Notes: a model not told the origin generated them from the letters alone. 32,000 nt of DNA from Candidatus Saccharimonadota bacterium (GCA_016700375.1 CP065016.1:540001-572000), one strand, 5' to 3'; shown: positions 7,439 through 32,000, numbered from the stretch's first letter. Translations and numbers: made by a program.

Positions 7439-7693
7439 ATGACGATAGCAAATGTTCACCAGGCAAAGACTAACCTTAGTAAGCTGCTCGACGAGGCAGC
7501 TGACGGGAAAGAGGTCTACATAACCCGACGAGGACGTAAAGGGCCAACTCGTTTCATGCTAGTTGCGGAACAGTGCTCCCCAAAACGACCTAGCCCCTTC
7601 GGGATGCTAGAGGGCAAAATAAAGTTCGCCGACGACTACGATAAAGCTGATGAGCAAATTATGGCTATGTTTGATAAAGACATTACTGAATGA
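7439..7693 (+). CDS. phd: Phd/YefM-family type II antitoxin
   Basis: MTIANVHQAKTNLSKLLDEAADGKEVYITRRGR is the typical Phd/YefM N-terminus. It overlaps the downstream PIN gene by 4 nt (ATGA). Confidence 0.8.
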   Translation: MTIANVHQAKTNLSKLLDEAADGKEVYITRRGRKGPTRFMLVAEQCSPKRPSPFGMLEGKIKFADDYDKADEQIMAMFDKDITE

Positions 7694-14753: not shown

Positions 14754-14854
14754 AGGTCGGTAACACATAATTATACCGGTAATGCTTTTGCCAGTAAACC
14801 CTTGTTGTTGACAAATTTTGCGCAAATCCGGTAGTGCAGTATAGTTAATACAAC
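14754..14854. promoter_or_regulatory. divergent LCP / lepB promoter region; both mRNAs with very short or no leader
   Basis: Minus strand has TTTACT, a 17-nt spacer, then TATAAT (plus 14770-14775), about 16 nt before ATG 14753. Plus strand has TTGCGC (14818-14823), a 16-nt spacer, then TATAGT (14840-14845), 9 nt before the lepB ATG 14855. No SD is seen for either gene. Confidence 0.4.
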
Positions 14855-15502: not shown

Positions 15503-15518
15503 GGTGATTTTGTTAGGT

Positions 15519-16382: not shown

Positions 16383-16460
16383 AGCACTTGCCCCCTAAAG
16401 TCGCGAAACTGTTGGTAGCTCTGCAAAGCCCAATTCTTATGAGCTTTCACCGGAAAATTA

Positions 16461-17243
16461 CTATAAATTACCACGTTTCACCACCTCCTGAGCCAGCGCC
16501 TTATATGCACGCGCACCCTTGCTCCACCTATCGTGTTCAAAAATTGTTTTCCCGTAGCTAGGCGCTTCGGCGAGTCGAATATTACGCGGGATAACACTAT
16601 GAAAAACCTTATCTCCGAAGTGTTTTTCTACCTCTTGCTTTACCTGCTCGCTGAGTACCGTACGCTTGGTAAACATGGTAAGTACGACACCGAAAATATG
16701 CAGGCCGGGATTCAGGCTACGCCTTACGAGCTGCATAGTTTGCATGAGCTGACTTAAACCCTCGAGGGCAAAATACTCTGCCTGTACCGGTATGATTACA
16801 CTATGTGCAGCAGTCAAAGCGTTTATGGTCAAAAGTCCTAGAGCCGGTGGGCAATCTATAACGACCACTTCAGCATCGACGTTCTTCATTACTTCCTTGA
16901 GCCGAGTTTCACGGTTCTGCACATCGACGAGTTGAACCTCTGCCTGTGCCAGCGAAGGACTAGCCGGTAACACAAAAAGATTATGGGTTTTTGTTGTCTT
17001 CACAATATCTGCCGTGTCTACCCGGCCAAGTAGTACGTCGTACAATGAATTAGCAAGGGTGTTTTTGTCTATCCCCAGACTACTTGTGCTGTTTCCTTGG
17101 GGGTCTAAGTCTACTAACACAACTCGCCGCTCATTTGTGGCAAGCTGAGCAGCCAGATTTATAGCGGTGGTTGTTTTGCCGACACCGCCCTTCTGGTTTG
17201 TGATGGCTACTATATAGGCCAAACGATTACCCTCTTTTCTCAC
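16461..17243 (-). CDS. parA: ParA/Soj partitioning ATPase
   Basis: Deviant Walker A IVAITNQKGGVGKTTTAINLA, then VLVDLDPQGN and VIIDCPP. The track start (GTG 17243) may be too long. TTG at 17222 has GAGGG 6 nt upstream. Confidence 0.95.
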   Translation of the reverse strand: MRKEGNRLAYIVAITNQKGGVGKTTTAINLAAQLATNERRVVLVDLDPQGNSTSSLGIDKNTLANSLYDVLLGRVDTADIVKTTKTHNLFVLPASPSLAQAEVQLVDVQNRETRLKEVMKNVDAEVVVIDCPPALGLLTINALTAAHSVIIPVQAEYFALEGLSQLMQTMQLVRRSLNPGLHIFGVVLTMFTKRTVLSEQVKQEVEKHFGDKVFHSVIPRNIRLAEAPSYGKTIFEHDRWSKGARAYKALAQEVVKRGNL

Positions 17244-17710
17244 TCTAGCGTATCAGATGTAAGCCTCGTCGTAAACCAGAAGTCTCCATCGTACATAACC
17301 CCATAATACCAGCCTTTTAATCTTATTTACTTTATTAGCTCCATAATACCCATGACCTCGAACGGTCTATGTACCTGTTATCACCTTAGCAATCCCTGTA
17401 AATTCCTTCTGTATACGGCTAACCTTCCAAAAAATGGGGGGTGCATTTTTGTTATATGTGTATTCCATGCTAGCTTTTCCCGACAGATCTAACCAAATAG
17501 GTTTGGAATGATTAGAAATTGTACGAAATTGAAAAATTTGTCACGGTCCTTGCATAGGTCTGGTTGCTAGCCGAGTTGCGGTTTGCTACTGCGCTTTAAC
17601 TAATGAATTCACTTATACATCTAAGCGCCCCCTAGCACCTACCATCTTGCTTAAAAAACTACGTTTCGTTCATTCTATTTATATTTCGCCTAAAATGCAT
17701 TTAAGGTACT

Positions 17711-17748
17711 AAAAAAGCAGGCCTTGCGAGAGTGCCTGCTTTTCGTTT
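17711..17748. terminator. bidirectional rho-independent terminator-like hairpin
   Basis: AAAAAAGCAGGC-cttgcgagagt-GCCTGCTTTTCGTTT has an A-run on one side and a T-run on the other. On the minus strand it would end the transcript coming from the 18043..18555 gene. Confidence 0.55.
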
Positions 17749-17873
17749 GATACGTTTTTGTTTTTGTTTGGTTTGAAGTTTTTGATTTCTCCGCAAAGTA
17801 CACGGGAAATCTGCAGACAAGTATGCGCTAATGCTTTTGCAAATGCAATACTTTTTGTGCACATTTTTTGCTC

Positions 17874-17907
17874 AAACTGTGGATTTTACCCCAGTTATCC
17901 ACAGTTT
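17874..17907. promoter_or_regulatory. perfect 11-bp inverted repeat containing a consensus DnaA box
   Basis: AAACTGTGGAT-n12-ATCCACAGTTT. The right arm contains TTATCCACA (17895-17903), the 9/9 consensus DnaA box. The left arm contains TGTGGATTT, which is 7/9 in the opposite orientation. Confidence 0.45.
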
Positions 17908-18042
17908 CTTCGTTGTTCGTTACGCATAACTCGGGTTCAACATAAACATCAAGCCCTTGTCCTCACCCAAATACTGTTCTGCCCGCTTGCTGACACGTAG
18001 CGGTACTACGTGCTTATGTCCGGCCACGGCTACACTAGGATA

Positions 18043-18555
18043 CTACTTCTCGGCTCGGAGCGTACTAAAGAGCAAGCCCCAATCATCTTGCGTAATTGGG
18101 TCAGGAGGATGCGCAACCAGCAGAGTCCCCTGTGCGGCAAGGATAGCTGAGTCTCCACCTGGCGTGTACGTCCCCACCTCAACCATACGCACAAGTGAAA
18201 CCGTCCCAAGTGGACTACGAAAGTTTGCTACTGGCTTCAACGAACCAATGAAGCGGTCGTAGGCCGCCCTATCATCCCTGTACTGTAGTGGCAAAGCCTG
18301 CTCTGTGAAAACAACCTTTTGGTTATTGACATATGCAACAAAACTAACAGTTTGGTCGCTAGGGTTATAATACCAGTCTTGCAAGCGTATCGACTTGTTT
18401 GTGGGCAATAACACCGCGAATGAAGCCTGCAGGCGAATGTATTTAGGCGAACGAGGTGCTGGGTGGAGAAAATACCATCCTGTGCAAGCAATAATAAGCA
18501 ACACGAGCACAATTCGTAATGTGTTGACCACGACCGTCTCTGCTCTTGTAGTCAT
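18043..18555 (-). CDS. single-pass membrane protein, paralog of 28918..29691
   Basis: From ATG 18555: MTTRAETVVVNTLRIVLVLLIIACTGWYF (TM), then an extracytoplasmic domain of about 135 aa. It shares VVFTEQALP / LTVDQQAVP, FRSPLGTV / FTTTLGAV and a C-terminal ..DW.....[ST]L pattern with the 257-aa protein. The IS left end lies 8-12 nt upstream of this ATG. Confidence 0.7.
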   Translation of the reverse strand: MTTRAETVVVNTLRIVLVLLIIACTGWYFLHPAPRSPKYIRLQASFAVLLPTNKSIRLQDWYYNPSDQTVSFVAYVNNQKVVFTEQALPLQYRDDRAAYDRFIGSLKPVANFRSPLGTVSLVRMVEVGTYTPGGDSAILAAQGTLLVAHPPDPITQDDWGLLFSTLRAEK

Positions 18556-18562
18556 ACCTGAA

Positions 18563-19643
18563 TTATACACGAGTTTCGCACTCCCCAATTCTTTGCTAGC
18601 CTAGAAGCATGACGTCAGTCATGCTTTTTCGTAAACAAGGAAAATAAACATGTCTCGTTCAAAATGTTCTCGTGAGCTGTACTGCTCATTCCTGGAGGTC
18701 ACCTCCTCACGGTATTCTGCGCTCAGCTTGAGCGAAGTAGCCCCAGACAATGCCATGCTCTCTCACGACAGCGTCTCCCGTTGGCTAGCATCTGAAAAGA
18801 TACAGCCCAAAGACCTGTGGCAAGCTGCCGCTTAAGGAAGTTCGCGCCACTCCTGGCATTTTGGTCTTCGATGATGTCGTCATCGACAAAAGCCGAAGCG
18901 GCAAGATGGAGCTTGTGAACTGGCAGTATGCGGGAAGTAAGCATGACATCACCAGAGGGATTGGCGTTGTAAATGCGTTGTGGCAAGTAGATACAGAACA
19001 CTACATTCCTATGGACTACCGCATCTGGAACCCGCCAGAAGACGGCAAGACTAAGAATGATCACTTCCAGGATATGCTGAGTAGCACAAGACAGAGAGGG
19101 CTACGCCCGGAGATGGTTGTTGCGGATAGCTGGTACGGCTCTCTAAAAAACCTTAAGGCAGTTCGCTCTCATGGCTGGGACTGGGTCATGGGGCTGAGGA
19201 GCAACCGGTTAGTCGGTAAGCCACATATCCAGCTCAGAGAGTTAGATATACCAGATACAGGCTTGGTGACATATCTGAAAGGCTATGGGTGGATCAGAGT
19301 CTTCCGGTTTGAGGCCAGTAACGGCCGCACGGATTATGTTGGTACAAGTCGTACTGACCTCACCCGCGAACAAGTCAAGAAATACTTCGAGCGCCGTTGG
19401 AGTGTCGAGGTACTGCATCGAGAACTCAAACAAACCTGTGGCTTATCCCGCTGTCAGGCCAATCTTGGCCGAGCCCAAAGAAACCACATTGGGTTAGCTT
19501 TGCTTACCTGGGTACGAAAACATAAGAGAAGGCTAATTGACCAAACGACGCTATACCAACAAGATTGGGAGGTCATAAAACCAGGCATCCAGCTTGCGCT
19601 GGCTGCCCGGTTGAATGGGTGAAAGTGCGAAACTCGTGTTATA
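18563..19643 (+). mobile_element. insertion sequence of about 1.08 kb with terminal inverted repeats, IS4/IS5/IS701-like DDE type
   Basis: ACACGAGTTTCGCACT (18567-18582) is the perfect reverse complement of AGTGCGAAACTCGTGT (19624-19639). The match extends to about 20 bp with one indel (TATA). TAT flanks both ends, a possible 3-bp target duplication. A DDE transposase is encoded between the repeats. Confidence 0.8.
18650..19622 (+). pseudogene. DDE transposase split into two ORFs (61 aa + 253 aa) by a frame change near 18830-18860
   Basis: ORF1 ends ...SHDSVSRWLASEKIQPKDLWQAAA*. The next frame (+1) reads LKEVRATPGILVFDDVVIDKSRSGKMELV..., so the protein is contiguous apart from the shift. DDE contexts are VFDDVVIDK, VVADSWYGS and RRWSVEVLHRELKQTCGL. 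No A-rich slippery heptamer lies at the junction. Confidence 0.7.
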
Positions 19644-20036
19644 CCATCTGCCCCTGATGAAAAACACCTGCTCCTAACCCACGCGGACGTTTTGGGTGTC
19701 ATCTTGAGCACTGAAATGAATTCAGTGTTAAGTCCGTAGAAAGATCTCAACATATTTGCATCTAGCAGGATCCCAACATGGAGTCTGCCCTGTGGGGTCG
19801 GGACGACGATGGAACAAAAAAGTATGGGTGGGATCAGCACCGGCTCTATAGTGCGGGCTGACCGACCGCCTGAAGGTTGGCTTGAGCATACAATCTAGGA
19901 GCAACCCAGCAAGAGCATAACAAGATACTCAGTGCACTCACTAATGACCAGCCCGATGTATGTCGGCTATGCCACGGTATTACGCCACGGCTGTAGTAGG
20001 ACACGCAAGGCACACAAATAGTGTGGTTCGCCCGCG

Positions 20037-23000
20037 CTACCAGCTGATGACCCATATCTTACCGACACCGCCTGCACCGCCTGCACCGCCCGCGCCATAG
20101 CTGTGCGCACCACCGCCACCGCCACCGCCACCGCCCGCACCGCCTGCACCGCCTGCATTGCCATTGCTACTGCCGCCGCCACCGCCACTTCCACAGGCGG
20201 CCGACGTGGCCGTACTACCGGCTGTACCTGGAGCGTTAGTGCCACCGGCACCACCGCCGCCAGCCGTATAGCTACCGCTCTTTCCGCCAGACCCTCCGAC
20301 AAATCCAGACGTAGTACCGCCACCGCCACCGCCAGCACCATAACCAGCGCTCCCACCAGTACCCCCGTTTGCACCTGCGCCTGCCTTATTGCCGCCGCCG
20401 CCACCACCATATTCAGCATTGTATCCGGGGGTGCCGTTGCTAGCACCTTGCCCCCCTAGAGCATCTGCATTGGATGTTGCTGTCTGGCCACTAATTGTAC
20501 TACCTCCGCCACCCCCGACACCCGAGGTATTTCCACCTGTGCCCCCACCAGCAAAAGCATAGCCACCAAATGTCGAGGCACCACCGGCACCACCGGCACC
20601 ACTACCCGCCGTACCTGCGCTACCGCTACTGCCGACCGTTGCGGTCACCGTTGCGGTCAAATCAGCAGCCACAAACATCCGCTCTACATGCGCACCACCG
20701 CCACCGCCACCGCCAGCAGCAAGCCCGATGTTTTGCCCACCACTACCGCCGCCGCCGCCGCCGCACATAATGACCAGCACAGCAGAAACACCACTCGGTT
20801 TCGTCCAGGTGTTCGCGCCTACGGTCGAATATACTTGCACATCGACACCGGCTTGCATGCCAACCCACGTACCATTCTGGCAGAAACGGAATTGGTTGGC
20901 GTTAGAGTTATAGTACATACCACCATTTGTACAGGTAGGATCGCCAGATGTGTTTTTGGTATCCAGCACCAACACTGTCGCCGTCGCATCCACTGCCCCT
21001 ACAGTGATGATATTACCAGAGGTATTAATATTGAGAACATTTGTGCCACTGCCGTTTTGTACCTGAAATGCCGTTGTCGTGTCGCTAGGGTTCTTTATGG
21101 TCAGTCCTGGGCTGGCAGAGATGACACCGTCTGAGTAGATGGTGCTACCAGCACCCGTGACGACACCGCCAGTAAAGTAGCCCTGGAAGAAACGGTTACC
21201 CTGCGTTGTGTAGTCTGTAGTAGTTGCACCAATGTTCTGGATTGTGTACTTTGTGACCGTAATAGATGCGTCGTATGAAACAGCTGGGGAGACTGTATAG
21301 GTACCATTGGCATTATCTACCGTGACCCTCGTGTAGTAGTCTTGACCAGCGTTGTTGAAGAAGATGACATCGTTAACACTGAAGGCATCTGTTGTCAGGG
21401 TAATGGCAGTGACGTTGGTACGAGCAGTGGCTTCAGTGGTACCAGTAGTGGCCGTGGCAACACCACCAGCCAGCAGGTTACCATCTGTATTAATTTTAAT
21501 CGTAGCGGTAGCTGAACTATTCTGGAACTGAAGTAGGTCAGCAGTCTGTGACCCAAGCTGCTTTACGACTGCTGTAACGCTGCCTACAGCCGTGCTCTGG
21601 ATGTTGAAGTTGGCACTCGTTTGGGTTGTCGTAGCGTTCTGAATGTAGCCGGCACCACCAGTTGCTGGTGCACAACCACTCCAACCTAGCGTACTGGTAG
21701 ACCCAGCTACTGTGGTGCTGAGACACTGCCCTGTCGTACCAACCGCTGTCGGAAGAACGAGGGAGTAACTCGAGCTGGTGGTACCAGTTTGGAGAGTGAC
21801 GGTGTTGGCGTTGGTAGAGTTCCTGAGCACAAGGGTGCCGTTAGTGGTACTGGCGGTACCAAGAGTGAGTGAACTACCACCCTGTATAGTACCGGTAAAG
21901 GTAGCTGAACCAGTGGTGTTGGTGGTTGGTGATGAACCAGAGGCAGCTAGGCCAGTGTCATTGGTTGTTTGAGTGGCACCGAGTTTGGTGGTGACGGTGG
22001 TTATGAGACCTTGCGTCGCACCACCAACCGTACGGTAGACTTTGTAGCTGGTGGCACCTGAGATACTGTTCCAGGTGATGATGGTATAGTTACCAGCAGT
22101 CAGGGTTGCGTTACCAGTAGCGGTAGAGCCAGCAGATGAGGCAATAGTCTCGCCGACGCCATCGAGAGCCGTGATAGTGTAGCTGTAGGTTGTACTACCA
22201 GCTGTACCACCAGTCGTAATGGTGGGAGCGGAAGGAGTTGGGAGTGCTGCTGCAGTCAAACCACCTTGGAGACTGAGAGTGCCAGAGACGGTCGAGGTAC
22301 CAACGGTCAAAGCACCCATGCCTTTGTTGATGAGGTTACCTGCGCCGTCCATTTGGTTAGAGTAGCGGGTGCCGGTACCAGCGTCGTTGATGGTGGCGGT
22401 GTTGGCAGCCGTACCGGAGAAGGTGTTGGAGGCGAGGTAGTTGTTCGTAGAGCCGGAGTCGATGATGCTGATGGCGTAGCAGGTACCGGTACAGCTGGTG
22501 TCAGTGATGTCGTTGCTGGTGATGGTGTTGGAGGATGAGTTGTTTATGTAGATAGCGTTGTTCGCCGTAGCGCCATTATTGTCATGGAATTTGTTGGCAC
22601 CAACGGTATTATTTGATGAGGTGGTGATGTAGATGCCGTAGTTAGAATTTCCATATATGGTGTTGCCTGTAAGGGTGTTGTTGTTGGAAGATGACAATTC
22701 TATACCTTGGATGCTATTCCCCTGCGCAGTGTTACCGGTGAGGGTGTTGTTGGAGGAGGAGGAGATGGTGAGACCGTAGTTATTCCCCTGCGCAGTGTTA
22801 CCGGTGATGGTGTTGTTGTTGGAGGAGGAGGAGATGGTGAGACCGTAGTTATTCCCCTGCGCAGTGTTACCGGTGATGGTATTATTTGAGGAGGTACTGA
22901 GGAAGATACCATAATTGGTATTCCCTTGAGCAACATTGCCAGTGAGGGTGTTATAGCTGGAGGAGGAGCTGACGGAGATACCATAATTGGCATTCCCTTG

Positions 23001-26000
23001 AGCAACATTGCCAGTGAGGGTGTTATAGCTGGAGGAGCCGAGGTAAATACCGTTGACAGAATTCCCTTGTGTTGTATTGCTCGTAAGAACATTGTTAGAG
23101 GAGGAGCGGAGACAGATACCATTTCCATTCTGACAATTTGACCCACCCGAGGCATACCAGTTATTCGCCTGCACGTTAGATATGCGTGCACCTTGGCGAG
23201 CACTGGCTCCACTGCCGCCACCCATGTTAAAGAAGTCAATACCAGCCATACCAACAAAGCCGCTTTGGTTGGCTTTATTGCCATCAAGCTTTAAGTCTCT
23301 TAGGGTGACGTTAGTCCCCGTAGTTTGGTCGGTGTTTATGATGGCACTGAAGTTCACATTCAATGCGTTCGGAATAGTGATGAGGGTGCCTTGCCCTATA
23401 CCACTGAGGGTTGTGTTGTTCGGAACTGAGATGCTGGAGTCGATGGTGTAGGTACCGGCCAGGAGGACAACTTTCTTGCCGGTGGCAGCAGTGAGGGCTT
23501 GGTTGATCTGGACTTGGTCCCCGTCAGCCGCTGCACCAGTGTTACCATCACCCAGGTAGTCAGCAGCTGCTTTGTCTGAGGCAGAACTGTTACTGGCAGC
23601 CACAAGGATAGCTTCACTCTTGTCAGCTTGCCATTTGGTGAGAGTAGCGTTGTAGACCAAGAGTTGTTTGGTGTCGGTGTCGTAGTAGAGCATGCCGTCG
23701 GTGGGGCTCGCAGGACGGGAGGCGGTGTTACCGCCGGTGATGGTGATGCTCTTGCCCGCAGCCAGGACGGTATTGTTCTGCAGATTGATGACGCCTGTGG
23801 CGGCTGGGTTAATGTTTATGTTACCGCTGGTGGTGGTCTGAAGCGTGAGATTACCGGCGGTGGTATTGAGAGCGGTGTTTATGTTAGTACTGGCAAGGTT
23901 GCTTAAGCTGGTGTTGGCACCGCTCAGGGTTCCAGAGCCGGCAATTGTCCAGTCGGCACCGTTCCAGATGAGGGTAACAGCACTGGTTGGGTTCACGACG
24001 CTAGTAAGAGCACCAGCATTCATTGAGATAGTGAAGTTGTTGGTTGTGCTCGCATTGGTGATGTAGAACATACGGCCAGCGGTCGTAGAGGTTGGGTCTG
24101 GGATAGTGTAGGTGCGGGCAGCAACCGTTGGAGCGATTGAGGCAGCGGTATATATGTCGACCGTAGCAGCGGCGGTACCAATGGCACCGGCTGCGAGGTC
24201 ACCCAGAGCCAGGGTGCCATTGAGCGTAGCACCGTTGTTAGTGAGAAGTTGGTTGGCGCCAACCAGGAGACCACCGTTGGCAGTAATAAGGCCAGAGAAG
24301 GTTGGGTTGTTGACGACGCTTACAGTTGTGCTGCCACCAAGTGCAACACTGCCACCACCACTGAGGTTTGTACCGGCGGTGACGGTAAGACTAGAGTTCA
24401 CAAGGTTAGCATTGGTAACGGTTGCAGAGCCAATGTCTGTACCAGAGACAGTGCCATCAAGGATGTTGGTGCTGGTCACACCACCTGTGCTAATGTCCCC
24501 GGTGGCAATAGTGCCATCAAGAATCATGGTAGAGGTAACCTTACCAGTGCCAATGGCGTAGGTTAGGGTATTGCCACTGACGGTACCAGTAACGTCACCA
24601 GCCGTGGCAGCATTGGCCCAGTTCGTACCGTTGTAGACAAGCAGGTTGTTGGTAGCGAGCGAGGTGTAGGTTACCGTCTGACCGTTTATCTTTGCAACTG
24701 TTGGGTTTGGATACGTGCCAGAAAGATCGCCACCAGCGCTACCACTCGGTGCACCGCCACAGGCTCCCCAGGTCGGTTGACCGGTACCGCCCGTACCGCT
24801 CTGGAGACATTGGCCAGCACTAACTGTAGTGCCACTGTAGACATACTTTGTACCATCACTGTAGACAACACTGCCTGCTCCGCCAATGGCACCATTGTTG
24901 TTGGTACCACCATTGGCTATGGGAAGAGTGCCAGTGAAGGTAATGTTACCTGCAGCAGACAGAGCAATGTTACCAGAAGCACTGACGGCTAGCGTACCAG
25001 AAGCGTCAGGCAGGGTGTAGATTCGGGCGGCGGTGAGGTCAGCGTTGGTGATGGTACCGTCGAAGCGGGCAGCGCCAACCGCAGCGGCAGATATGAGGAT
25101 ACGGTCTTGGGTACCAGTGGCGGTATCTACAGTAATACCGCGGATGGTAGCACCACCCGTGAAGGAAGAAGCAACTGTTGTAGTCGCACCACGGTTGGTC
25201 ACCGTCTGCAGGGTATCTGCTTCAGCACTAATACCACAGCTGCCCCAACTTGGTGCCACACCGACACCATTAGATATGAGGCAGGAACCAGAAGCGACAG
25301 CGGCAAGCTTACTGAGAGTAGTCGCACCAGAGGCGTAGATAAGGTCACCGGTGGTGTAGCTGGTAATACCAGTACCACCGTAAGCTGCGCCAACGGCAGT
25401 TCCCTGCCAGGTACCGGTGGCAATGGTACCGACACTGGTAATACTGGTTGTGTTACCGGTGGTAATAACAGTACCGGAGACATCGGGGAAGGTCCAGGTA
25501 CGGTTGGCAGTCAGGTCAGCGTTGGTAATGGTACCAGTGAAGCGGCCTGCCCCGCCGGTGGTAACGGCGACAGATATAAGGTCGTCGGTGGCAGTGGCGG
25601 TGTCTACCGTCAGGGTACGGATAGTAGCTCCACCCTGGAAGGAAGAAGCTGTTGTGGTAGTAGCACCACGGCCAGTGACAGTGGCGAGAGTATCTGCCTC
25701 CGCCGTAATACCACAAGAACCCCACTGGATGGTGGTGGCATTGCTGGTCAGACACTGACCATTGGTTCCTCGGGCGAGACGAGTACTGTTGGTACCATTG
25801 TGGTAGAGGAGGTCACCGTTGGTGGTCAGGCCTGAGAGATTGTTTATGGCACCTTGGGCGGTGGTGGCGTTCGTACCACCATTGGCTATGGGGAGAGTGC
25901 CGGTGACGTTTGTAGTCAGGTTAATCTGGTTGGCGGTAATAGCCTGCCCCGTGAGACTGAGGTAGTTCTGACCGCTGACGGTGACATCGCCGGTGTTGGT

Positions 26001-28601
26001 ACCCGTAAGATTACTGCCACTGACTGTACCTGTGGCAGAAATATTGCCAGTGACGTTCGTGTTATCTTGCAACTCTATGGTGCCAGCACTGTTGAGGACT
26101 ATGTTCCCACTAGTGGTAGTAGTAATGTTCAGGTTGTTGCTGGTGCTGTTCAGGGCGGTGGTGCCAAGGTTGACGGCTGAGAGATTGCTTAAGCTGGTGT
26201 TGGCACCGCTCAGAGTGCCCGAGCCGGCAATTGTCCAGTCAGCACCGTTCCAGATGAGGGTAACAGCGCTGGTTGGGTTCACGACGCTAGTGAGAGCACC
26301 GGCATTCATTGAGATAGTGAAGTTGTTGGTTGTGCTCGCATTGGTGATGTAGAACATACGGCCAGCGGTCGTAGAGGTTGGGTCTGGGATAGTGTAGGTG
26401 CGGGCAGCAACTGTTGGAGCGATTGAGGCCGCGGTATATATGTCGACCGTAGCAGCGGCGGTACCAATGGCACCGGCTGCGAGGTCACCCAGAGCCAGAG
26501 TGCCATTGAGCGTAGCACCGTTGTTAGTGAGAAGTTGGTTGGCGCCAACCAGGAGACCACCGTTGGCAGTAATAAGGCCAGAGAAGGTTGGGTTGTTGAC
26601 GACGCTTACAGTTGTGCTGCCACCAAGTGCAACACTGCCACCACCACTGAGGTTTGTACCGGCGGTGACGGTAAGACTAGAGTTCACAAGGTTAGCATTG
26701 GTAACGGTTGCAGAGCCAATGTCTGTACCAGAGACAGTGCCATCAAGGATGTTGGTGCTGGTCACACCACCCGTGCTAATGTCCCCGGTGGCAATAGTGC
26801 CATCAAGGATCATGGTAGAGGTAACCTTACCAGTGCCAATGGCGTAGGTTAGGGTATTGCCACTGACGGTACCAGTAACGTCACCAGCCGTGGCAGCATT
26901 GACCCAGTTCGTACCGTTGTAGACAAGCAGGTTGTTGGTAGCGAGTGAGGTGTAGGTTACCGTCTGACCGTTTATCTTTGCAACTGTTGGGTTTGGATAC
27001 GTGCCAGAAAGATCGCCACCAGCGCTACCACTCGGTGCACCGCCACAGGCTCCCCAGGTCGGTTGACCGGTACCGCCCGTACCGCTCTGGAGACATTGGC
27101 CAGCACTAACTGTAGTGCCACTGTAGACATACTTTGTACCATCGCTGTAGACAACACTGCCTGCTCCGCCAATGGCACCATTGTTGTTCGTACCACCGTT
27201 GGCTATGGGAAGAGTGCCGGTGAAGGTAATGTTACCAGCAGCAGACAGAGCAATGTTACCAGAAGCACTGACGGCGAGCGTACCAGAAGCGTCAGGCAGG
27301 GTGTAGGTTCGGGCAGCGGTGAGGTCAGCGTTGGTGATGGTACCGTCGAAGCGGGCAGCGCCAACATTTGCAGCCGCTATTAATATACGATCATACGCCG
27401 TATTGGCCGATGCAAGTGTCAGGCCATCTTGAAATGTTTTATTTCCAGCAAATGTCTGAGCGGCCGTACCGACAAGCCCGGGTTTGTCAACCTGGGCGGT
27501 TTGCATATATATAGACGTACCACTTATGACAGCGCCATCGTTTGACTTTGACTGCGAGTCAATGGTACCGACAGATGTTACCCCAGAACCACCGCCAGCA
27601 CAACTCCCGAAACTCAGCTGCCCTGCACCGTCAGTGAGAACACAATCACCGTTGCTGCCATTCGAAATCGGGAATGTAATGGTTCGGTTTGCGGCAGAAG
27701 CACCTGCTTTGAGAGTGGTCGTAAAGCCATTGCCAGCATGCAACACCATCTGCCCTTGGGTACTGGCGCTACCGACCGTCACTGTTGTGTTTGCTAGGAA
27801 CGTGTTTACTTGACCACTCCCTGATATGCGAAAACTGGCACTTTGGTCAGTGGCAGTTTGGTTCTGGATATAGCTAGCGTTTGCCGCCGAACCAGTCAAT
27901 AGCGTATACGTCCCCCCAGCTCCTTGGTCAGGAACCTGGAATATCTGGTTGCCACCGGTTGGTGCTTGGATGCTAAGGGTTGAGTTGAGTGCTCCTGATG
28001 TGGTCAGTAGCTGACTCGCCGTCTTAGCATTAAACGCATAGGGTACTGCGGTGAGCTTGAGTCTTGGGGACATCTCTCCGTCCCAGGTGGGAGTAGCGGT
28101 TTGGGTGGTACCACCAACGTTCATGGTGAGGTAGAGCTGTTGGTCCCAGGGCATCGTACCGGGGAAAGCTGTTTGGGAGCCAAGGTTAACGGTAACGTAG
28201 CCATTGGCTACTCGGACACGGTTGTCGTTACCTGCTGTACCACCATTGCTGTCGTAGTAGGTTTCAGTCCAGAGGAGAGCACCACCACTCAGGGCATCGT
28301 AGAGCTTGAACTGGATGTTGTAGTAGCCGTCTGGGGCAATGGCACCAGCAGCTGTTTCCAGACGAGCCTGGAAGTTTAGGTTGTCACTGGTGGCGGCATA
28401 CGCGTGTGGCACGCCTACGCCCCCGCGCGTGAGGAAAAACAGGGGGAGGAGGAGCAAGGTGAACACCAAAATTGTACGGATGGGCTGAGCGATAGCCTGT
28501 ACATTCTGCCACGAGCGGTACACTGACACGACAAATCCCCTGAGCGGTATACGCTTCAGGGTGCGCCGGAACAGTACGAGTTTTTTGCCCTGTCTATGCA
28601 T
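20037..28601 (-). CDS. 2854-aa secreted giant surface protein (tail-fibre-like repeats, parallel beta-helix, FN3-like module, glycine-rich C-terminal domain)
   Basis: Single uninterrupted ORF. The N-terminal hydrophobic segment IRTILVFTLLLLPLFFL is followed by PHAYA-AT, which is signal-peptide-like. Motifs LPIANGGTN, RTYTLPDASGT and G-x-C-L...W-G-x-C recur. PbH1-type 22-24-aa units occur (NTLTGNVAQGNANYGISVSSSS...). An FN3-like GATSYKVYR is present. The last 247 aa contain about 106 Gly. Confidence 0.9.
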   Translation of the reverse strand: MHRQGKKLVLFRRTLKRIPLRGFVVSVYRSWQNVQAIAQPIRTILVFTLLLLPLFFLTRGGVGVPHAYAATSDNLNFQARLETAAGAIAPDGYYNIQFKLYDALSGGALLWTETYYDSNGGTAGNDNRVRVANGYVTVNLGSQTAFPGTMPWDQQLYLTMNVGGTTQTATPTWDGEMSPRLKLTAVPYAFNAKTASQLLTTSGALNSTLSIQAPTGGNQIFQVPDQGAGGTYTLLTGSAANASYIQNQTATDQSASFRISGSGQVNTFLANTTVTVGSASTQGQMVLHAGNGFTTTLKAGASAANRTITFPISNGSNGDCVLTDGAGQLSFGSCAGGGSGVTSVGTIDSQSKSNDGAVISGTSIYMQTAQVDKPGLVGTAAQTFAGNKTFQDGLTLASANTAYDRILIAAANVGAARFDGTITNADLTAARTYTLPDASGTLAVSASGNIALSAAGNITFTGTLPIANGGTNNNGAIGGAGSVVYSDGTKYVYSGTTVSAGQCLQSGTGGTGQPTWGACGGAPSGSAGGDLSGTYPNPTVAKINGQTVTYTSLATNNLLVYNGTNWVNAATAGDVTGTVSGNTLTYAIGTGKVTSTMILDGTIATGDISTGGVTSTNILDGTVSGTDIGSATVTNANLVNSSLTVTAGTNLSGGGSVALGGSTTVSVVNNPTFSGLITANGGLLVGANQLLTNNGATLNGTLALGDLAAGAIGTAAATVDIYTAASIAPTVAARTYTIPDPTSTTAGRMFYITNASTTNNFTISMNAGALTSVVNPTSAVTLIWNGADWTIAGSGTLSGANTSLSNLSAVNLGTTALNSTSNNLNITTTTSGNIVLNSAGTIELQDNTNVTGNISATGTVSGSNLTGTNTGDVTVSGQNYLSLTGQAITANQINLTTNVTGTLPIANGGTNATTAQGAINNLSGLTTNGDLLYHNGTNSTRLARGTNGQCLTSNATTIQWGSCGITAEADTLATVTGRGATTTTASSFQGGATIRTLTVDTATATDDLISVAVTTGGAGRFTGTITNADLTANRTWTFPDVSGTVITTGNTTSITSVGTIATGTWQGTAVGAAYGGTGITSYTTGDLIYASGATTLSKLAAVASGSCLISNGVGVAPSWGSCGISAEADTLQTVTNRGATTTVASSFTGGATIRGITVDTATGTQDRILISAAAVGAARFDGTITNADLTAARIYTLPDASGTLAVSASGNIALSAAGNITFTGTLPIANGGTNNNGAIGGAGSVVYSDGTKYVYSGTTVSAGQCLQSGTGGTGQPTWGACGGAPSGSAGGDLSGTYPNPTVAKINGQTVTYTSLATNNLLVYNGTNWANAATAGDVTGTVSGNTLTYAIGTGKVTSTMILDGTIATGDISTGGVTSTNILDGTVSGTDIGSATVTNANLVNSSLTVTAGTNLSGGGSVALGGSTTVSVVNNPTFSGLITANGGLLVGANQLLTNNGATLNGTLALGDLAAGAIGTAAATVDIYTAASIAPTVAARTYTIPDPTSTTAGRMFYITNASTTNNFTISMNAGALTSVVNPTSAVTLIWNGADWTIAGSGTLSGANTSLSNLASTNINTALNTTAGNLTLQTTTSGNININPAATGVINLQNNTVLAAGKSITITGGNTASRPASPTDGMLYYDTDTKQLLVYNATLTKWQADKSEAILVAASNSSASDKAAADYLGDGNTGAAADGDQVQINQALTAATGKKVVLLAGTYTIDSSISVPNNTTLSGIGQGTLITIPNALNVNFSAIINTDQTTGTNVTLRDLKLDGNKANQSGFVGMAGIDFFNMGGGSGASARQGARISNVQANNWYASGGSNCQNGNGICLRSSSNNVLTSNTTQGNSVNGIYLGSSSYNTLTGNVAQGNANYGISVSSSSSYNTLTGNVAQGNTNYGIFLSTSSNNTITGNTAQGNNYGLTISSSSNNNTITGNTAQGNNYGLTISSSSNNTLTGNTAQGNSIQGIELSSSNNNTLTGNTIYGNSNYGIYITTSSNNTVGANKFHDNNGATANNAIYINNSSSNTITSNDITDTSCTGTCYAISIIDSGSTNNYLASNTFSGTAANTATINDAGTGTRYSNQMDGAGNLINKGMGALTVGTSTVSGTLSLQGGLTAAALPTPSAPTITTGGTAGSTTYSYTITALDGVGETIASSAGSTATGNATLTAGNYTIITWNSISGATSYKVYRTVGGATQGLITTVTTKLGATQTTNDTGLAASGSSPTTNTTGSATFTGTIQGGSSLTLGTASTTNGTLVLRNSTNANTVTLQTGTTSSSYSLVLPTAVGTTGQCLSTTVAGSTSTLGWSGCAPATGGAGYIQNATTTQTSANFNIQSTAVGSVTAVVKQLGSQTADLLQFQNSSATATIKINTDGNLLAGGVATATTGTTEATARTNVTAITLTTDAFSVNDVIFFNNAGQDYYTRVTVDNANGTYTVSPAVSYDASITVTKYTIQNIGATTTDYTTQGNRFFQGYFTGGVVTGAGSTIYSDGVISASPGLTIKNPSDTTTAFQVQNGSGTNVLNINTSGNIITVGAVDATATVLVLDTKNTSGDPTCTNGGMYYNSNANQFRFCQNGTWVGMQAGVDVQVYSTVGANTWTKPSGVSAVLVIMCGGGGGGSGGQNIGLAAGGGGGGGAHVERMFVAADLTATVTATVGSSGSAGTAGSGAGGAGGASTFGGYAFAGGGTGGNTSGVGGGGGSTISGQTATSNADALGGQGASNGTPGYNAEYGGGGGGNKAGAGANGGTGGSAGYGAGGGGGGTTSGFVGGSGGKSGSYTAGGGGAGGTNAPGTAGSTATSAACGSGGGGGSSNGNAGGAGGAGGGGGGGGGAHSYGAGGAGGAGGVGKIWVISW
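22690..23050. repeat. DNA-level tandem units of 66, 69 and 72 bp encoding parallel beta-helix turns
   Basis: attcccctgcgcagtgttaccggtga recurs at about 22716, 22782 and 22851. gataccataattggNattcccttgagcaacattgccagtgagggtgttatagctggaggag recurs at 22905 and 22977. Confidence 0.85.
23899..25079. repeat. intragenic direct repeat, copy A (1181 bp)
   Basis: Aligns base-for-base with 26185..27365 at a constant offset of 2286 bp. I count about 22 mismatches by hand. Confidence 0.9.
26185..27365. repeat. intragenic direct repeat, copy B (1181 bp)
   Basis: See copy A. The encoded segments of about 393 aa differ at only two residues (V/A in NW[VA]NAAT, T/I in AAR[TI]YTLPD). Confidence 0.9.
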
Positions 28602-28896
28602 AGCTTCTTTTGTTTTGGTTTTTGAGAGTTTTTGTTTGTATCAGTTTGTTTTGTTTTGCCGATACGTAGCTAATTGTGCGCGTCTTTTGCTACAAAAACA
28701 AGACAGCTTAGGCCTATTCTCTAAAGCAACAGAATGGGGAGGTTTTATGTATGCAATTCATATCAATATGTTATTATAAATACAGCAGAATACCTTAAAA
28801 TAGTGTAAAAATGTTGTTATTTTACCTCATATATTTGTTCCTTGAAATCAATTTAGAGTTGTTAAAATATCAACAATAGTAATAATACTGTCCAGG

Positions 28897-28905
28897 TTAT
28901 CCACA
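28897..28905 (+). promoter_or_regulatory. second perfect DnaA-box 9-mer in the AT-rich region upstream of the giant gene
   Basis: TTATCCACA in context CCAGGTTATCCACAGG. The other copy reads CCAGTTATCCACAGT. Confidence 0.3.
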
Positions 28906-28917
28906 GGCATACATACC

Positions 28918-29691
28918 TCACTGCAGGCTTTGAATGTACACCACCCAGTCTGTATTTGGCAGTGTCTTGGTGCTCTGTATAAACATAAGCATTTTGTCAC
29001 TTACGAGCATCATTCGCTGCGTGTTTGCGTCTTCACTACTTGATATGTAGACCGCCCCTAGGGTGGTCGTAAATGTATCATTTGCACCTATGCTAGTTGC
29101 AAGCTCGCGCACAGCTGTTTTACTGGTTTTGAGTTTTTCTGGTACGGCCTGTTGGTCAACAGTGAGGTTTGCACCTTTATAGGAGTCATAGAAAGAGTAT
29201 AGTTTTTTTGCCTCATCATACTTTGGCGGTGTTGCCGTCACCTTCCCGGCCACAAGCTGAACCGATTGCAACGGTTTATACCCCAACTCGGCCTGTACGA
29301 TTGTGGGTGCTTTCGGTGTTGGTGCTGACTTTTGTGTCGCGCCAAGGAGCATCTTTCCCCCAAAAATACCGACAAACACTACTACAGCCGCAAGCAACCA
29401 TGGCCGCAGCCGAGCAAACGGGATACGGGGGACATGCAATTGCGGCATATGAATTTGGATAGATACAGTCGGCTGTTCGCCATGTTTCGGCGGCAGCACC
29501 TCCGACCGCCGCAGACGACGTTTCACCTGGGATGCAGTAAATCCCTCTGTGGATTTCACTTGGGATGGCGAGGTGTGGCGTATGGCCTTCGTTGGGGGCT
29601 GGTCAGGAGATGTGTCATCACGCAGCCACGCCGGCAGCGCATCGTCATCGTCGAAATCAATCGTTTTAAACTTACCGACGTCCATAGACAC
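28918..29691 (-). CDS. single-pass membrane protein, paralog of 18043..18555
   Basis: An acidic or basic cytoplasmic N-terminus of about 95 aa, then the TM segment WLLAAVVVFVGIFGGKMLL. The extracytoplasmic domain shares motifs with the 170-aa paralog. It starts 6 nt after the Kelch-like gene stop. Confidence 0.75.
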   Translation of the reverse strand: MSMDVGKFKTIDFDDDDALPAWLRDDTSPDQPPTKAIRHTSPSQVKSTEGFTASQVKRRLRRSEVLPPKHGEQPTVSIQIHMPQLHVPRIPFARLRPWLLAAVVVFVGIFGGKMLLGATQKSAPTPKAPTIVQAELGYKPLQSVQLVAGKVTATPPKYDEAKKLYSFYDSYKGANLTVDQQAVPEKLKTSKTAVRELATSIGANDTFTTTLGAVYISSSEDANTQRMMLVSDKMLMFIQSTKTLPNTDWVVYIQSLQ

Positions 29692-29697
29692 TCCTCA

Positions 29698-32000
29698 TCA
29701 TGGTAACGGACAGTTGTAGTTCGGATCACCGGGCGATGCGCTCCCACGGCGGCACGGGGTGTCGAGCGGCTGCTGCTCACCGCCGGTAAATGTTTTTCCG
29801 TGCAGCATACGCTTGCTGGGGTCGGCCGTGTAAAACAACGAAAGGTCGGTGATAGTTGGCCCGCGCGTGACGTCCTCTGGATAGCCAAAGGCCTGCGAGC
29901 TATCGATATTGACCGAGAAGTAGTAGTAGCGTGCGCAGTTTGTGTTTGTGCCACTCCCATCACGAGGAACTAACGTGCCAACATTCCCCAGCGTGACCTC
30001 GCCGTGATTATACTCCTGCCCCCATGTGGTCATATCGACCACGCAATCGGCCGTCACGCCATCTATGTCTGTCATACTCCGGTAGCGGAGGTACCAACGT
30101 GCGCCAGTCGAGTTATCGACACCATTCAAAAGCCAGCTGTTTGGAAATACATCTGTGTCGGTATCTATCATGCGCGAATACTTTGCAACTTGCGGCTGTG
30201 ATTTTATGGACGAATAGAAATGCCTGCCACTGCTGAGCGGTGCCGTACAGCCACCACCCATAACAACTATTTTGCCGCCCACATAGGAAACCGCCGCACC
30301 GTATCTGTCGCCGCTGTAGCGTTTATTTGTTTCATACCAGTCGCCAATGCCAGTTGGGTTATTGCCGCTCGCCACCGTTGTGTTGGCGCTGATGGGTGTC
30401 ACGAGCGTATTTGGCGCACAGGTACTGGCGGCCGAGCGGCCAGCTACCAAATAGAGATAGCCATTGGCGGCAAAGCCCTCAGCTTCACTGATTGGCCCCG
30501 GAAGGCTTGTCGTAAACGTCCATGCGTCGACCGTTCCGTCGCTGTTAATCTGGGTAAACTGTGCATCATTAAAATACTGGGTACCATTGTTGCCGCCAAA
30601 AGTGTACAAATTATTGGCATACGCTACCACTGTGTTACCACGCCGAGCAACATCTGGCACGTCTGTGTCTTGCGCCCAGCTATCGGCCGCAATATTGCCG
30701 CCGCTACTCAGCTGCGGGCTTATGTAGACCGTGTTGGTGTTCGCAGCGCTACCATCTAAGCCTCCGACAACATATATGCGGTTGTTCCATACCGCCGCGC
30801 CGAATCGAGTCCTGGCTTGTGCAGCTTGTGCAGCTGTATCACCTATACCTCCTGAAGCGGTTGACCAAGCTGTGGCAATGTCTCCCGAGGAAAAACTATT
30901 TGCATAGAACACAGTCGATTGCTCGTTAGTGGCTGTGTCGTCTTGACCACCAAGATAGTACAGGTTTCCACCGGCAACCTCCAGTTGCCCCCAAGTTCTA
31001 TCAAACGGCAGACCATTTGTGGCCGATGCCCATGTACCAATTGTTCCATTCGATGTATCGATTGGCGCGTACTGCACGTTACTGGTTGCATTTGTACAGT
31101 CCGTCGCACTAATACAACCGCCCGCCACATATATATAGCCATTCAACACAGCCGAGCTTGCACCCCACCGATCGGTATCGGCCGCAAACGTGTCATCTGA
31201 CAGCGCCGTGTAATCTACCGGCGCACCACTATCGTTATTGTAAAGCTGGAATGTCTGAATCTCTGGCTGCATACTCGTGCAGCCAGCCGGTGCCGCCCCT
31301 GCCGCACAACCGCCAATAGCATAGACATAGCCATTACCCACAATAGCACGCAAATCCCAGCGAGGTGTCACTACCACACCAGAGCTATCAAACGTGCCCA
31401 TATCTCCTGTTGTCACGTCTATTTTTGCAAACAAAAGGTCTTGAAGCGAGGCAGTGCCGCTATACCCAGCAAGCGAATATATGTACCCGTTGTACCCAAA
31501 AGCCACGGCGCGTCGGCGCACAGGATCCATGAGCCCTGTCGTAAATTTCCAACTGCCTGTTGATAGACCCGTTGTATTATCGACAATGTTATTGCTATCA
31601 TCAATTTTTGCGTATATGGTGTCGCGACGGTTTGCGGCAAAGTTGGGGCCACATGGATAGTTATCGTCACCGGTTCCCCCAGCATTAATAACCGAGCACG
31701 AGCCACCAACAAGGTAAATTCGATTTGCATATATTGTACCAGCCATTAGGCCAAGCCCCTGAGAACCAGTGTTGAGATTATCGGCGTCAATTTGAAGCTG
31801 ACCTGCGGTATCACAGTCAGTCGCATTGGCCTCTTCCAATGCCCCGCTGGTCATAATATTACACTTATATACTTCTGTGAAATACGTGCTACAACCTATG
31901 CCATCATCACCTGTGCCCCCACCAGCTATATAACATCCGCCCAACACATACAGGTTGCCCGGGTAGGTTGCCGCATTGGCTGGGTTAGACCTGGTAAAAC
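29698..32000 (-). CDS. Kelch-repeat-like beta-propeller protein, at least 767 aa (5' end beyond the right window edge)
   Basis: At least 10 blade signatures: GNLYVLGG (at the edge), NRIYLVGG, GYIYSLAG, GYVYAIGG, GYIYVAGG, GNLYYLGG, NRIYVVGG, NNLYTFGG, GYLYLVAG, GKIVVMGG. The track's start at 31947 is a TTG. The frame stays open to position 32000 (..FTRSNPANAATYPGNLYVLGGCYIAGGG), so the gene is truncated by the window. Confidence 0.85.
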   Translation of the reverse strand, partial: FTRSNPANAATYPGNLYVLGGCYIAGGGTGDDGIGCSTYFTEVYKCNIMTSGALEEANATDCDTAGQLQIDADNLNTGSQGLGLMAGTIYANRIYLVGGSCSVINAGGTGDDNYPCGPNFAANRRDTIYAKIDDSNNIVDNTTGLSTGSWKFTTGLMDPVRRRAVAFGYNGYIYSLAGYSGTASLQDLLFAKIDVTTGDMGTFDSSGVVVTPRWDLRAIVGNGYVYAIGGCAAGAAPAGCTSMQPEIQTFQLYNNDSGAPVDYTALSDDTFAADTDRWGASSAVLNGYIYVAGGCISATDCTNATSNVQYAPIDTSNGTIGTWASATNGLPFDRTWGQLEVAGGNLYYLGGQDDTATNEQSTVFYANSFSSGDIATAWSTASGGIGDTAAQAAQARTRFGAAVWNNRIYVVGGLDGSAANTNTVYISPQLSSGGNIAADSWAQDTDVPDVARRGNTVVAYANNLYTFGGNNGTQYFNDAQFTQINSDGTVDAWTFTTSLPGPISEAEGFAANGYLYLVAGRSAASTCAPNTLVTPISANTTVASGNNPTGIGDWYETNKRYSGDRYGAAVSYVGGKIVVMGGGCTAPLSSGRHFYSSIKSQPQVAKYSRMIDTDTDVFPNSWLLNGVDNSTGARWYLRYRSMTDIDGVTADCVVDMTTWGQEYNHGEVTLGNVGTLVPRDGSGTNTNCARYYYFSVNIDSSQAFGYPEDVTRGPTITDLSLFYTADPSKRMLHGKTFTGGEQQPLDTPCRRGSASPGDPNYNCPLP

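Follow-up and report, generated by a model that had tools for sequence, protein, structure and literature searches.

The 32,000-nucleotide stretch of the Candidatus Saccharimonadota bacterium genome analysed here (CP065016.1:540001-572000; hereafter the window, with positions counted from its first letter) contains a giant gene whose ATG-to-stop open reading frame (ORF) lies on the minus strand at 20037..28601, stays open over 8,565 nucleotides (nt) and encodes 2,854 amino acids (aa). The identical sequence is held in GenBank as QQS70078.1, under the name 'right-handed parallel beta-helix repeat-containing protein', on a Candidatus Saccharibacteria contig of 1,256,494 bp. Its neighbours in the window are rpsB, a short tsf, prfA, prmC, htrA, an LCP-family gene, parA, parB and an S26 signal peptidase gene. 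From its N-terminus the protein consists of a signal peptide, a conserved domain, a long stalk of repeated modules, a parallel beta-helix, a further stretch of stalk, and a connector followed by a glycine-rich tip; all of these features are on the minus strand.

A Sec-exported giant and its family

The protein begins with a Sec-type signal peptide (aa 1-69; 28395..28601) made up of a basic n-region with a K..VLF.RTL-like motif, a hydrophobic core (LVFTLLLLPLFFL) and the sequence AYA|A at aa 67-70. The n-region (aa 1-41) holds nine K/R residues and no D/E, and the segment at about aa 34-64 is the sole hydrophobic one in all 2,854 residues. A first-pass annotation, made from the DNA alone, had described a secreted protein with a basic N-region, a hydrophobic core and AYA-A; the conservation of both the signal and the AxA site across homologues bears this out, and the sequence supports export via Sec to the extracellular space. 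The most abundant residues are Thr (16.5%), Gly (15.8%), Ala (11.9%), Ser (9.6%) and Asn (8.9%). Taken in order, the 20 cysteines make up 10 successive pairs, of which nine have a spacing of 4-17 residues, a pattern that fits local extracellular disulfides. The same annotation saw no LPXTG, choline-binding or S-layer-type anchor, and here too the protein yielded no LPXTG-type motif with a hydrophobic tail (the C-terminus reads ...GKIWVISW), no SLH or choline-binding (CW_binding) Pfam match, no lipobox element and no second hydrophobic segment. Nor does it match any autotransporter Pfam family, which would supply a C-terminal beta-barrel translocator, though some homologues are labelled autotransporter adhesins by JGI.

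Directly after the signal peptide lies the domain that defines the family (aa 70-203; 27993..28394), with the signature NLNFQARL...PDGxYNxxFKLY...LWTE... and a predicted fold of a beta-sandwich followed by a short helix, modelled by AlphaFold2 with a predicted local distance difference test (pLDDT) score of about 90 over aa 72-187. No Pfam, NCBIfam or PHROG model matches it. A search with the whole protein returned 373 homologues, of which the best 120 are 1,622-4,984 aa long and, where named, come from Saccharimonadales or Patescibacteria. The first ~200 residues are common to 96 of these 120, and every other 200-aa window recurs in only 4 to 40 of them. The motif NFQ[AG]R is present in 94 of 121 family members, at a median position of 56, with a strong hydrophobic window upstream in 84 of the 121; in the members listed, an AxA-type site falls 5-7 residues before the NFQ[AG]RL motif, and the basic n-region often carries the K..VLF.RTL-like motif.

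The reach of the family becomes apparent when the N-terminal domain is searched on its own. Among 1.84 billion cluster representatives (clusters at 50% identity), it hits 5,512 clusters at E<=1e-3, of which 415 also pass E<=1e-30; the hits begin within ~130 residues of the N-terminus in the 150 best listed, and the proteins reach 6,397 aa. In species-representative genomes, 486 loci encode the domain, several genomes carrying more than one family copy, and of the best 80 of these loci 78 are titled Saccharibacteria, Saccharimonadales, Saccharimonadia or Patescibacteria, the other two only 'bacterium'. Where the present protein has a beta-helix, other members have Kelch, CBM_4_9, FG-GAP, LVIVD, peptidase G2 or peptidase S74 modules. 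Judged by sequence, this is a large family for which Pfam has no model, mosaic beyond its N-terminal domain and with many members ending in a connector and an exchangeable tip; the protein of the window belongs to it, having the Sec signal with its AxA site, the conserved ~130-aa N-terminal domain and the connector before its tip. In a searchable but incomplete literature collection, no description was found of this saccharibacterial family or of a polyglycine-rich domain on a cellular giant protein.

The stalk is built of recurring modules of about 50-160 aa, each with a cysteine pair 13-17 residues apart. Its proximal part (aa 204-412; 27366..27992) holds the first 'NRTITFP / GxC...C' module together with YIQNQ and NKTF motifs and recurs in about 40 of the 120 best homologues. 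Block A (aa 413-806; 26184..27365) follows with RTYTLPDASGT, LPIANGGTN, GQCL..W..CG, GGDLSGTYPNPTV and LVYNGTNW, short 'ILDGT..' repeats and a globular-looking end. Block B (aa 807-1174; 25080..26183) consists of stalk modules that are present in the allele of the related locus L001 and absent from that of L002, and block A' (aa 1175-1568; 23898..25079) is a second copy of block A. A linker (aa 1569-1664; 23610..23897) carrying the first 'P..GMLYYDT...L.VY....W' motif leads into the beta-helix. Beyond the helix and the module that follows it, the distal stalk (aa 2226-2539; 20985..21926) comprises one 'SYSLVLP / GQCL..W..C' module and two 'ADLLQFQNS... / AFQVQNGSGTNVLNINTSGN' units.

Blocks A and A' reflect an internal duplication of 1,181 nt at 98.1% identity (ORF nt 1237-2417 versus 3523-4703), with 22 differences; of the differing codons, 20 of 22 are synonymous and the other two non-synonymous. 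This duplication accounts in part for the recurrence of motifs along the protein, where RT[YWI]T[LFI]P[DI] occurs six times, TGTLPIANGGTN three times (aa 461, 900 and 1223) and LVYNGTNW twice (aa 559 and 1321). Further on, GKKVVLLAGTYTI stands at aa 1708, LRDLKLDGN at aa 1767 and YTIITWNSISGATSYKVYR at aa 2172, so that all the motifs listed in the first-pass annotation, and the order of modules it gave, are present in the translation.

Its further suggestion, that some 1,500 aa of Thr/Gly/Ser/Asn-rich modules are tail-fibre-like, is not supported for the stalk, which has almost no phage relatives by PHROG, tblastn or PDB searches. Residues 68-806 gave no PHROG match at all, and block A found neither a tblastn match in 50,697 phage records nor a relative by sequence among the solved structures of the PDB. 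The distal stalk likewise has no significant PDB relative, a very weak match to the S-layer chain 7qeh_A standing at E 0.41. What phage similarity there is falls in block B, which matches phrog_30390 (function unknown; E 2.3e-13 at aa 1025-1120) and gave three short, weak phage tblastn matches, and in the linker, with weak PHROG matches to virion structural and tail spike families (E 3e-4 to 1e-2).

A phage-type tip and a parallel beta-helix

The phage-like element of the protein, to judge by profile and fold, is instead the terminal 'polyglycine' domain, which the first-pass annotation had recorded as glycine-rich and left uninterpreted. It is preceded by a conserved connector (aa 2540-2584; 20850..20984; LVLDTKNTSGDPTCTNGGMYYNSNANQFRFCQNGTW) that lies 275 aa before the protein end. 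The consensus of this connector, LLVLDTK..GDPTG.NG.MYYNS...FRCY.NG.W, occurs 147-375 aa before the C-terminus in 22 of the 121 family proteins, and the segments that follow it in these 22 fall into at least 12 unrelated BLAST clusters. The tip itself is a polyglycine-rich domain (PGD), Pfam Gly_rich_2 in type (aa 2585-2854; 20040..20849), running from VDVQVYSTVGANTWTKPSGV to GKIWVISW and containing eight runs of at least four glycines; over aa 2625-2854, 43% of residues are glycine. The GC content of the window has its maximum (0.617) at 20-21 kb because of the glycine codons of this domain.

The AlphaFold2 model of the PGD, built from an alignment of the query fragment and 51 homologues (52 rows), has a pLDDT of 89.8 and a predicted template modelling (pTM) score of 0.83; strands are confined to its start and end, and between them run long high-confidence stretches without DSSP structure. 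In a Foldseek search of the PDB the model matched best the mycobacteriophage Bxb1 tail tip (9d93_Qa, E 4.5e-8) and the cyanophage Pam3 fibre gp24 (7ypx_A, E 7.7e-6), chains Qa and Qb and 7ypx_A all at a probability of 1.0, with weaker matches (E ~1e-2) to the TNF-like/glycine-rich domains of ALK and LTK. Against BFVD there were 245 viral matches at E<=1e-3, the best at E 2.7e-22 with 41% identity and a TM score of 0.73. By sequence profile, the PGD matches phrog_863 ('tail fiber assembly') at E 2.6e-22, and every one of the 52 aligned sequences, this one included, also hits that family. Its score against PF21722 (Gly_rich_2) is 17.7 bits, below the gathering cut-off of 24.3 (E 0.0039), with profile positions 2-223 of 226 covered; 43 of the 51 homologues, the query fragment itself not among them, match PF21722 at E<=0.001, the best at E 2.9e-26. 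The domain has the conserved start 'F..SGTWTKP.G' and end '..V.V(I/W)(S/T)(W/Y)' in common with homologues. Taken together, structure model and PHROG profile identify the domain as a phage tail-fibre-tip domain and a member of the PF21722 fold family, though it scores below the Pfam threshold.

The 78 sequence relatives of the PGD are mostly proteins of 250-545 aa with PF21722, one of them named 'minor tail protein', and their partner domains include Mtd_N, collagen and DUF2793. Both of the relatives whose contigs were inspected (n=2) are phage-like, one adjoining Mu gp45 and baseplate J genes and the other lying downstream of a capsid gene. A tblastn search of the PGD against 50,697 phage genomes returned no matches, probably owing to the low-complexity filter, because the PHROG and BFVD searches give many relatives. 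The PGDs of two other giants, P0105 and P0111, are 47% identical to the query and thus no closer to it than those of small phage-like proteins (43-49%), values that favour neither direction of transfer. In phages, the polyglycine-rich domain is found at the ends of adhesion devices (PMC9608196, PMC13252515, 10.64898/2026.07.24.740622), and host binding has been attributed to the loops that end the polyglycine bundle in S16 gp38 and Pam3 gp24 and proposed for the mycobacteriophage PGDs (PMC9608196; 10.64898/2026.07.24.740622; PMC13252515).

A Pfam scan of ten alternative tips gave one significant and one weak match. Among them (C-terminal 230 aa; P0052, P0102) are a ConA-like lectin (Laminin_G_3 / SO2946-like_C, E 1.8e-6) and, weakly, BclA_C (E 8e-4). 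The BclA C-terminal domain is TNF/C1q-like, and most of the other alternative tips have no Pfam model. The second ORF of locus L001 ends in the same type of tip as the homologue P0002 and has a CBM_4_9 match somewhere along its length.

Inside the protein, between the linker and the distal stalk, lies a right-handed parallel beta-helix of the CASH / pectate-lyase fold (aa 1665-2080; 22362..23609), composed of an N-terminal cap (ADYLGDG...GKKVVLLAGTYTI) and nine regular PbH1 turns spaced about 23 aa apart (aa 1836-2031). It scores well above the curated thresholds of Pfam NosD (PF05048; E 1.3e-33, 116.7 bits against a cut-off of 23.6), Pfam Beta_helix (PF13229; E 3.3e-27, 95.5 against 25.9) and TIGR03804 (E 3e-28, 97.2 against 19.45), and the cap resembles the rhamnogalacturonase/epimerase model PF12708 (E 0.0011). 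It is not a member of the NosD family proper, reaching 49.9 bits against a cut-off of 300 for TIGR04247. The first-pass annotation had read a parallel beta-helix of about 10 turns and proposed a comparison with pectate-lyase-fold proteins, and the solved relatives that emerged are NosD (7o0y, E 7.7e-6) and the mannuronan C5-epimerase AlgG (4ozy, E 4.2e-5).

The module behind the helix (aa 2115-2225; 21927..22259) had been called similar to fibronectin type III (FN3). One marginal structural match speaks for this (3mpc_A, 'Fn3-like protein', E 0.025), along with a W..GA.SY.VYR signature; there is, however, no Pfam match at E<=5, and the order of segments is unusual, an F-G-like hairpin aligning upstream of the B-C signature so that the usual strand order is apparently rearranged. 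The FN3 assignment of this region is thus weakly supported.

A conserved chromosomal locus with a variable slot

The gene occupies a position that is conserved across distant Saccharibacteria. In L001-L004 and L089 the Kelch giant is followed in turn by the ~260-aa membrane protein, the variable giant, parA, parB, S26, LCP, HtrA and PrmC, and L088 keeps the Kelch giant, the small protein and the giant, its contig ending inside the last. The S26 signal peptidase I gene (14855-15502, plus strand; E 6.3e-36) lies between parB and the LCP gene, in the same place as in L002 and L089. The occupants of the variable slot are the protein of 2,854 aa described here, others of 2,234, ~3,000 and 3,910 aa (the last with a peptidase G2 domain), and a beta-helix protein of 661 aa. 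Directly upstream of the giant gene lies the gene of the single-pass membrane protein QQS70079.1 (257 aa; 28918..29691, minus strand), which has no Pfam or NCBIfam match; its ~260-aa counterparts, some of them only 46-49% identical, lie strictly in this place, flanked by the Kelch giant and the variable giant, in all the related loci examined (L001-L004, L088 and L089). The first-pass annotation had suggested that membrane proteins nearby may help to anchor the giant, and by position this one may be such a partner. Next comes the C-terminal part of the Kelch-repeat giant (at least 767 aa; 29698..32000, minus strand), with Kelch Pfam matches and no stop up to 31998, which runs off the window. 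Together with its homologues of 1,916-2,222 aa it belongs to another family, marked by a signal-anchor behind a long basic N-terminus and by a conserved C-terminal ...PLDTPCRRG...GDPNYNCPLP. The Kelch-giant orthologue in L088 also has a weak PF21722 match.

Comparison of the alleles in this slot confirms the mosaic character that the first-pass annotation had ascribed to the protein. Residues 59-848 are 97% identical to P0002 and residues 37-1226 are 91% identical to P0001; the alleles diverge afterwards. In the distal stalk, aa 2255-2388 are 79% identical to P0002. At the DNA level, compared over window positions 13941-32000, identity to L002 is uneven: 96.9-99.4% in the 5' third of the giant gene, 92% in the Kelch giant and the small protein, and 81-88% in LCP, parB and parA. 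That the 5' part of the giant gene is far closer to L002 than are the parAB/LCP flanks points to a recent exchange of segments between lineages. At L001 (10001-19424), P0001 (2,010 aa) has an odd tail (…GQRIRYHQPKQPVWR), and the next ORF (986 aa, with CBM_4_9) starts in the middle of a stalk module; to judge by their sequences, a frameshift or sequencing error has apparently divided a single gene of ~3,000 aa.

A scan of the larger ORFs of the window, ~25 in all, turned up nothing phage-like, no tRNA gene was found, and the sole mobile element is an IS-type DDE transposase. With its housekeeping neighbours and conserved locus, the giant gene is chromosomal and not part of a phage. A scan downstream of it found no promoter or terminator.

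Several other features of the window deserve mention. The DDE transposase ORF (18861-19622, plus strand; 253 aa) is 24% identical to the insertion sequence at the equivalent place in L002. In L001 and L002 a second Kelch giant comes after the variable one; the window lacks it, and the interval 17244-20036 looks rearranged. Within it, a 181-aa ORF (18043-18588, minus strand) has one predicted transmembrane segment and no family match, and is unrelated to the 257-aa protein. Further away are a type II toxin-antitoxin pair (7439-8085, plus strand) of a Phd/YefM antitoxin (84 aa, E 1.9e-9) and a PIN toxin (131 aa, E 2e-15), and a 629-aa ORF adjoining rpsB (3245-5134, minus strand) without a Pfam or NCBIfam match.

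A proposed surface fibre and its relation to known systems

It is proposed here, with a confidence slightly better than even, that the protein is a surface fibre that binds, and perhaps degrades, the envelope glycans of another cell, and that it represents one allele in a variable slot of the chromosome. Signal peptidase I would probably cleave after AYA (aa 69), leaving the conserved N-terminal domain as the putative cell-proximal end of a protein that would remain at the surface. The beta-rich modules with their cysteine staples, ~1,450 aa in all, would form a long stalk, succeeded by the CASH-type parallel beta-helix, a short further stalk and the conserved connector with its exchangeable, presumably distal tip. 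The PGD, and probably also the beta-helix, would bind surface glycans or lipids of another cell, which for an epibiotic Saccharibacterium would most plausibly be its host; the beta-helix, to judge by its fold family, may also cut polysaccharide. Recombination between the repeated stalk modules and between alleles could then reshuffle the stalk and swap the tip, as happens in phage receptor-binding proteins. Saccharibacteria are indeed known to need several surface adhesins for epibiotic growth (PMC10633639).

A number of observations weigh against this proposal. The weakest link is retention at the surface: no anchor was found and the signal is probably cleaved, so the protein could simply be released. 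The N-terminal domain finds only weak, generic immunoglobulin (Ig)-like matches in a Foldseek search of the PDB (E>=0.03), and the matches of the beta-helix to NosD and AlgG are driven by the repeat pattern alone. As a monomer, the stalk is modelled by AlphaFold2 at a pLDDT of only 45-70 (the model of the N-terminal domain and stalk spans aa 68-530 and uses N-terminally anchored homologue fragments), low values that fit either an oligomeric fold or a shallow alignment. The PGD is rare, being C-terminal in two of the 120 best homologues (P0105 and P0111), and its viral carriers infect diverse hosts, with phages of mycobacteria, cyanobacteria, E. coli and Achromobacter, plus megaviruses, in BFVD; given this diversity, the identity of the bound organism cannot be read from the domain. 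Because Actinobacteria are the hosts of cultivated Saccharibacteria, a particular connection of the tip with actinophages was considered and rejected, the best viral matches being to uncultured freshwater phages and the rest having other hosts or belonging to megaviruses.

Of the other explanations, the one that survives best is that the protein is mainly a secreted or surface polysaccharide-degrading enzyme, its beta-helix a working lyase, hydrolase or epimerase on glycans of the host wall or matrix and its remaining modules spacers and carbohydrate-binding accessories, serving feeding or penetration and not recognition. The beta-helix is the strongest curated match in the protein, its cap resembles PF12708, and its solved relatives include NosD and AlgG; many family members have such a helix, NCBI calls one homologue 'glycosyl hydrolase family 28-related', and phage tailspikes pair the same fold with depolymerase activity. 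However, many members have no beta-helix match on record, and in several of these its place is taken by Kelch, peptidase G2, CBM, FG-GAP or LVIVD modules, which argues that the helix is interchangeable cargo and not the point of the family. Enzymatic activity would moreover be compatible with a binding fibre, since tailspikes both bind and cut. As a rival to the binding fibre, this explanation seems unlikely, if still one to be reckoned with.

Less probable again, and distinctly so, is a structural component of the Saccharibacterium's own envelope, S-layer-like or a sheath, without a role in cell contact. Members of the family are very numerous and occur several to a genome, and the Thr/Gly/Ser/Asn-rich composition and beta-rich fold would suit such a part; there is also a sub-threshold match to SlpA domain II (E 0.0031; aa 238-313), in addition to the very weak one to 7qeh_A. 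Neither S-layer match is significant, however, no SLH or other wall-binding module was found, and extreme allelic variation with swapped tips, some of them lectin-like or of the phage receptor-binding type, is unexpected for a protein that forms a lattice.

That the ORF is an assembly artefact or a pseudogene, its A-B-A' arrangement merged from strain variants with no real 2,854-aa protein behind it, appears very improbable. Two 1,181-nt copies at 98.1% identity and 2,286 nt apart are indeed a repeat of the type on which assemblers go wrong, block A is present only once in the related L002 contig, and the L001 allele is apparently split by a frameshift. Against this, the reading frame runs uninterrupted through 8,565 nt, the record consists of one 1.26-Mb contig, and the junctions recur elsewhere. 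The single L002 copy shares 96.9% DNA identity with window 26185-28682, which includes the first copy, and 99.4% with block A' over 23656-25079, the match continuing across the downstream junction; the A-to-B and B-to-A' junctions recur in the independent assembly P0001/L001, which is collinear through aa 1226. Every junction is therefore found in at least one independent assembly, which together with the 20 of 22 synonymous differences makes an assembly chimera unlikely. The source record, we infer, comes from a Nanopore-plus-Illumina metagenome-assembled genome project on activated sludge that yielded 30 circular Patescibacteria genomes (PMC8012365). Finally, a phage or tailocin tail-fibre gene within a prophage, for which only the C-terminal tip domain and the weak PHROG and tblastn matches of two stalk segments could be cited, is scarcely credible in view of a Sec signal peptide, which virion proteins lack, a locus and housekeeping flanks kept across distant Saccharibacteria, and a window in which the scanned ORFs include nothing phage-like, no tRNA gene was found and the only mobile element is an IS-type DDE transposase.

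How the ultrasmall epibiotic Patescibacteria choose and hold their hosts is largely unknown, and genetics has so far identified only type IV pili and unnamed 'adhesins' for host attachment (PMC10633639, PMC11665869). Here is a family of thousands of clusters, confined among the inspected loci to Saccharibacteria and other Patescibacteria, whose members are built like receptor-binding fibres and among whose tips is a domain that elsewhere is familiar from the tail fibres of phages. A more far-reaching proposal, speculative and on present evidence doubtful, is that Saccharimonadia run a phage-like host recognition from chromosomal genes, with Sec-exported giant fibres of conserved proximal domain, shafts and tips reshuffled by recombination among paralogues and among lineages, and tips, PGDs shared with phages being one kind, that set which bacteria can be attached. 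On this view the slot beside parAB would determine host range, and epibionts would share with phages one stock of receptor-binding modules. Should the tips set host range, the family would offer concrete candidates for testing and a link between host recognition by phages and by epibionts; should the protein be only a secreted glycanase or an envelope protein, the outcome would be an ordinary improvement of annotation.

Comparison with known systems places the protein between several of them. With the phage PGDs (Bxb1 9D93 Qa/Qb, Pam3 gp24 7YPX and S16 gp38; PF21722, phrog_863) it shares the fold, a small TNF-like beta-sandwich core with a bundle of extended glycine-rich stretches, and, as phage fibres do, it carries the domain at the C-terminal, presumably distal end; it differs in that the domain here sits on a Sec-exported bacterial protein, behind 2,580 aa and in a housekeeping neighbourhood, and not on a 250-550-aa virion protein in a tail module. 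The likeness to phage tail fibres and tailspikes as a whole extends to the layout, in which the N-terminal part is conserved and the shaft mosaic, a beta-helix has the tailspike fold and swappable tips follow a conserved junction, and to the recent exchange of segments between lineages for which evidence is given above. Yet there is a signal peptide here, no virion-attachment domain and no phage context, and the shaft modules are essentially without phage homologues; by context, signal peptide and shaft, the protein is thus not a member of the phage tail-fibre class. The CASH beta-helix proteins (NosD, AlgG, pectate lyases and GH28) share with it profiles above threshold, the nine PbH1 turns and the PF12708-like cap, but the beta-helix here makes up only ~415 of 2,854 residues and its TIGR04247 score is far below the cut-off.

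The polymorphic CdiA/Rhs systems likewise combine a conserved N-terminal bulk and a short junction motif with C-terminal domains that are unrelated from allele to allele; here, by contrast, the variable ends look like binding domains (PGD, ConA-like lectin and possibly TNF/C1q-like) and not like toxins, and no immunity gene is apparent. The RTX-type adhesins (LapA, SiiE and MpIBP) and the MSCRAMM-like fibres of Gram-positive bacteria are held by the cell at one end and carry distal ligand-binding modules on a long, beta-rich repeat stalk. The protein resembles them as a very large extracellular protein with a stalk of repeated beta-rich modules; it departs from them in that it has an N-terminal Sec signal in place of a C-terminal type I secretion signal and no LPXTG sortase signal, its repeats do not belong to the Ig, BIg or cadherin Pfam families, and its tip is a PGD of the phage type. 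By analogy with these systems, the way in which the protein would work comes closest to that of phage receptor-binding fibres or giant adhesins of bacteria.

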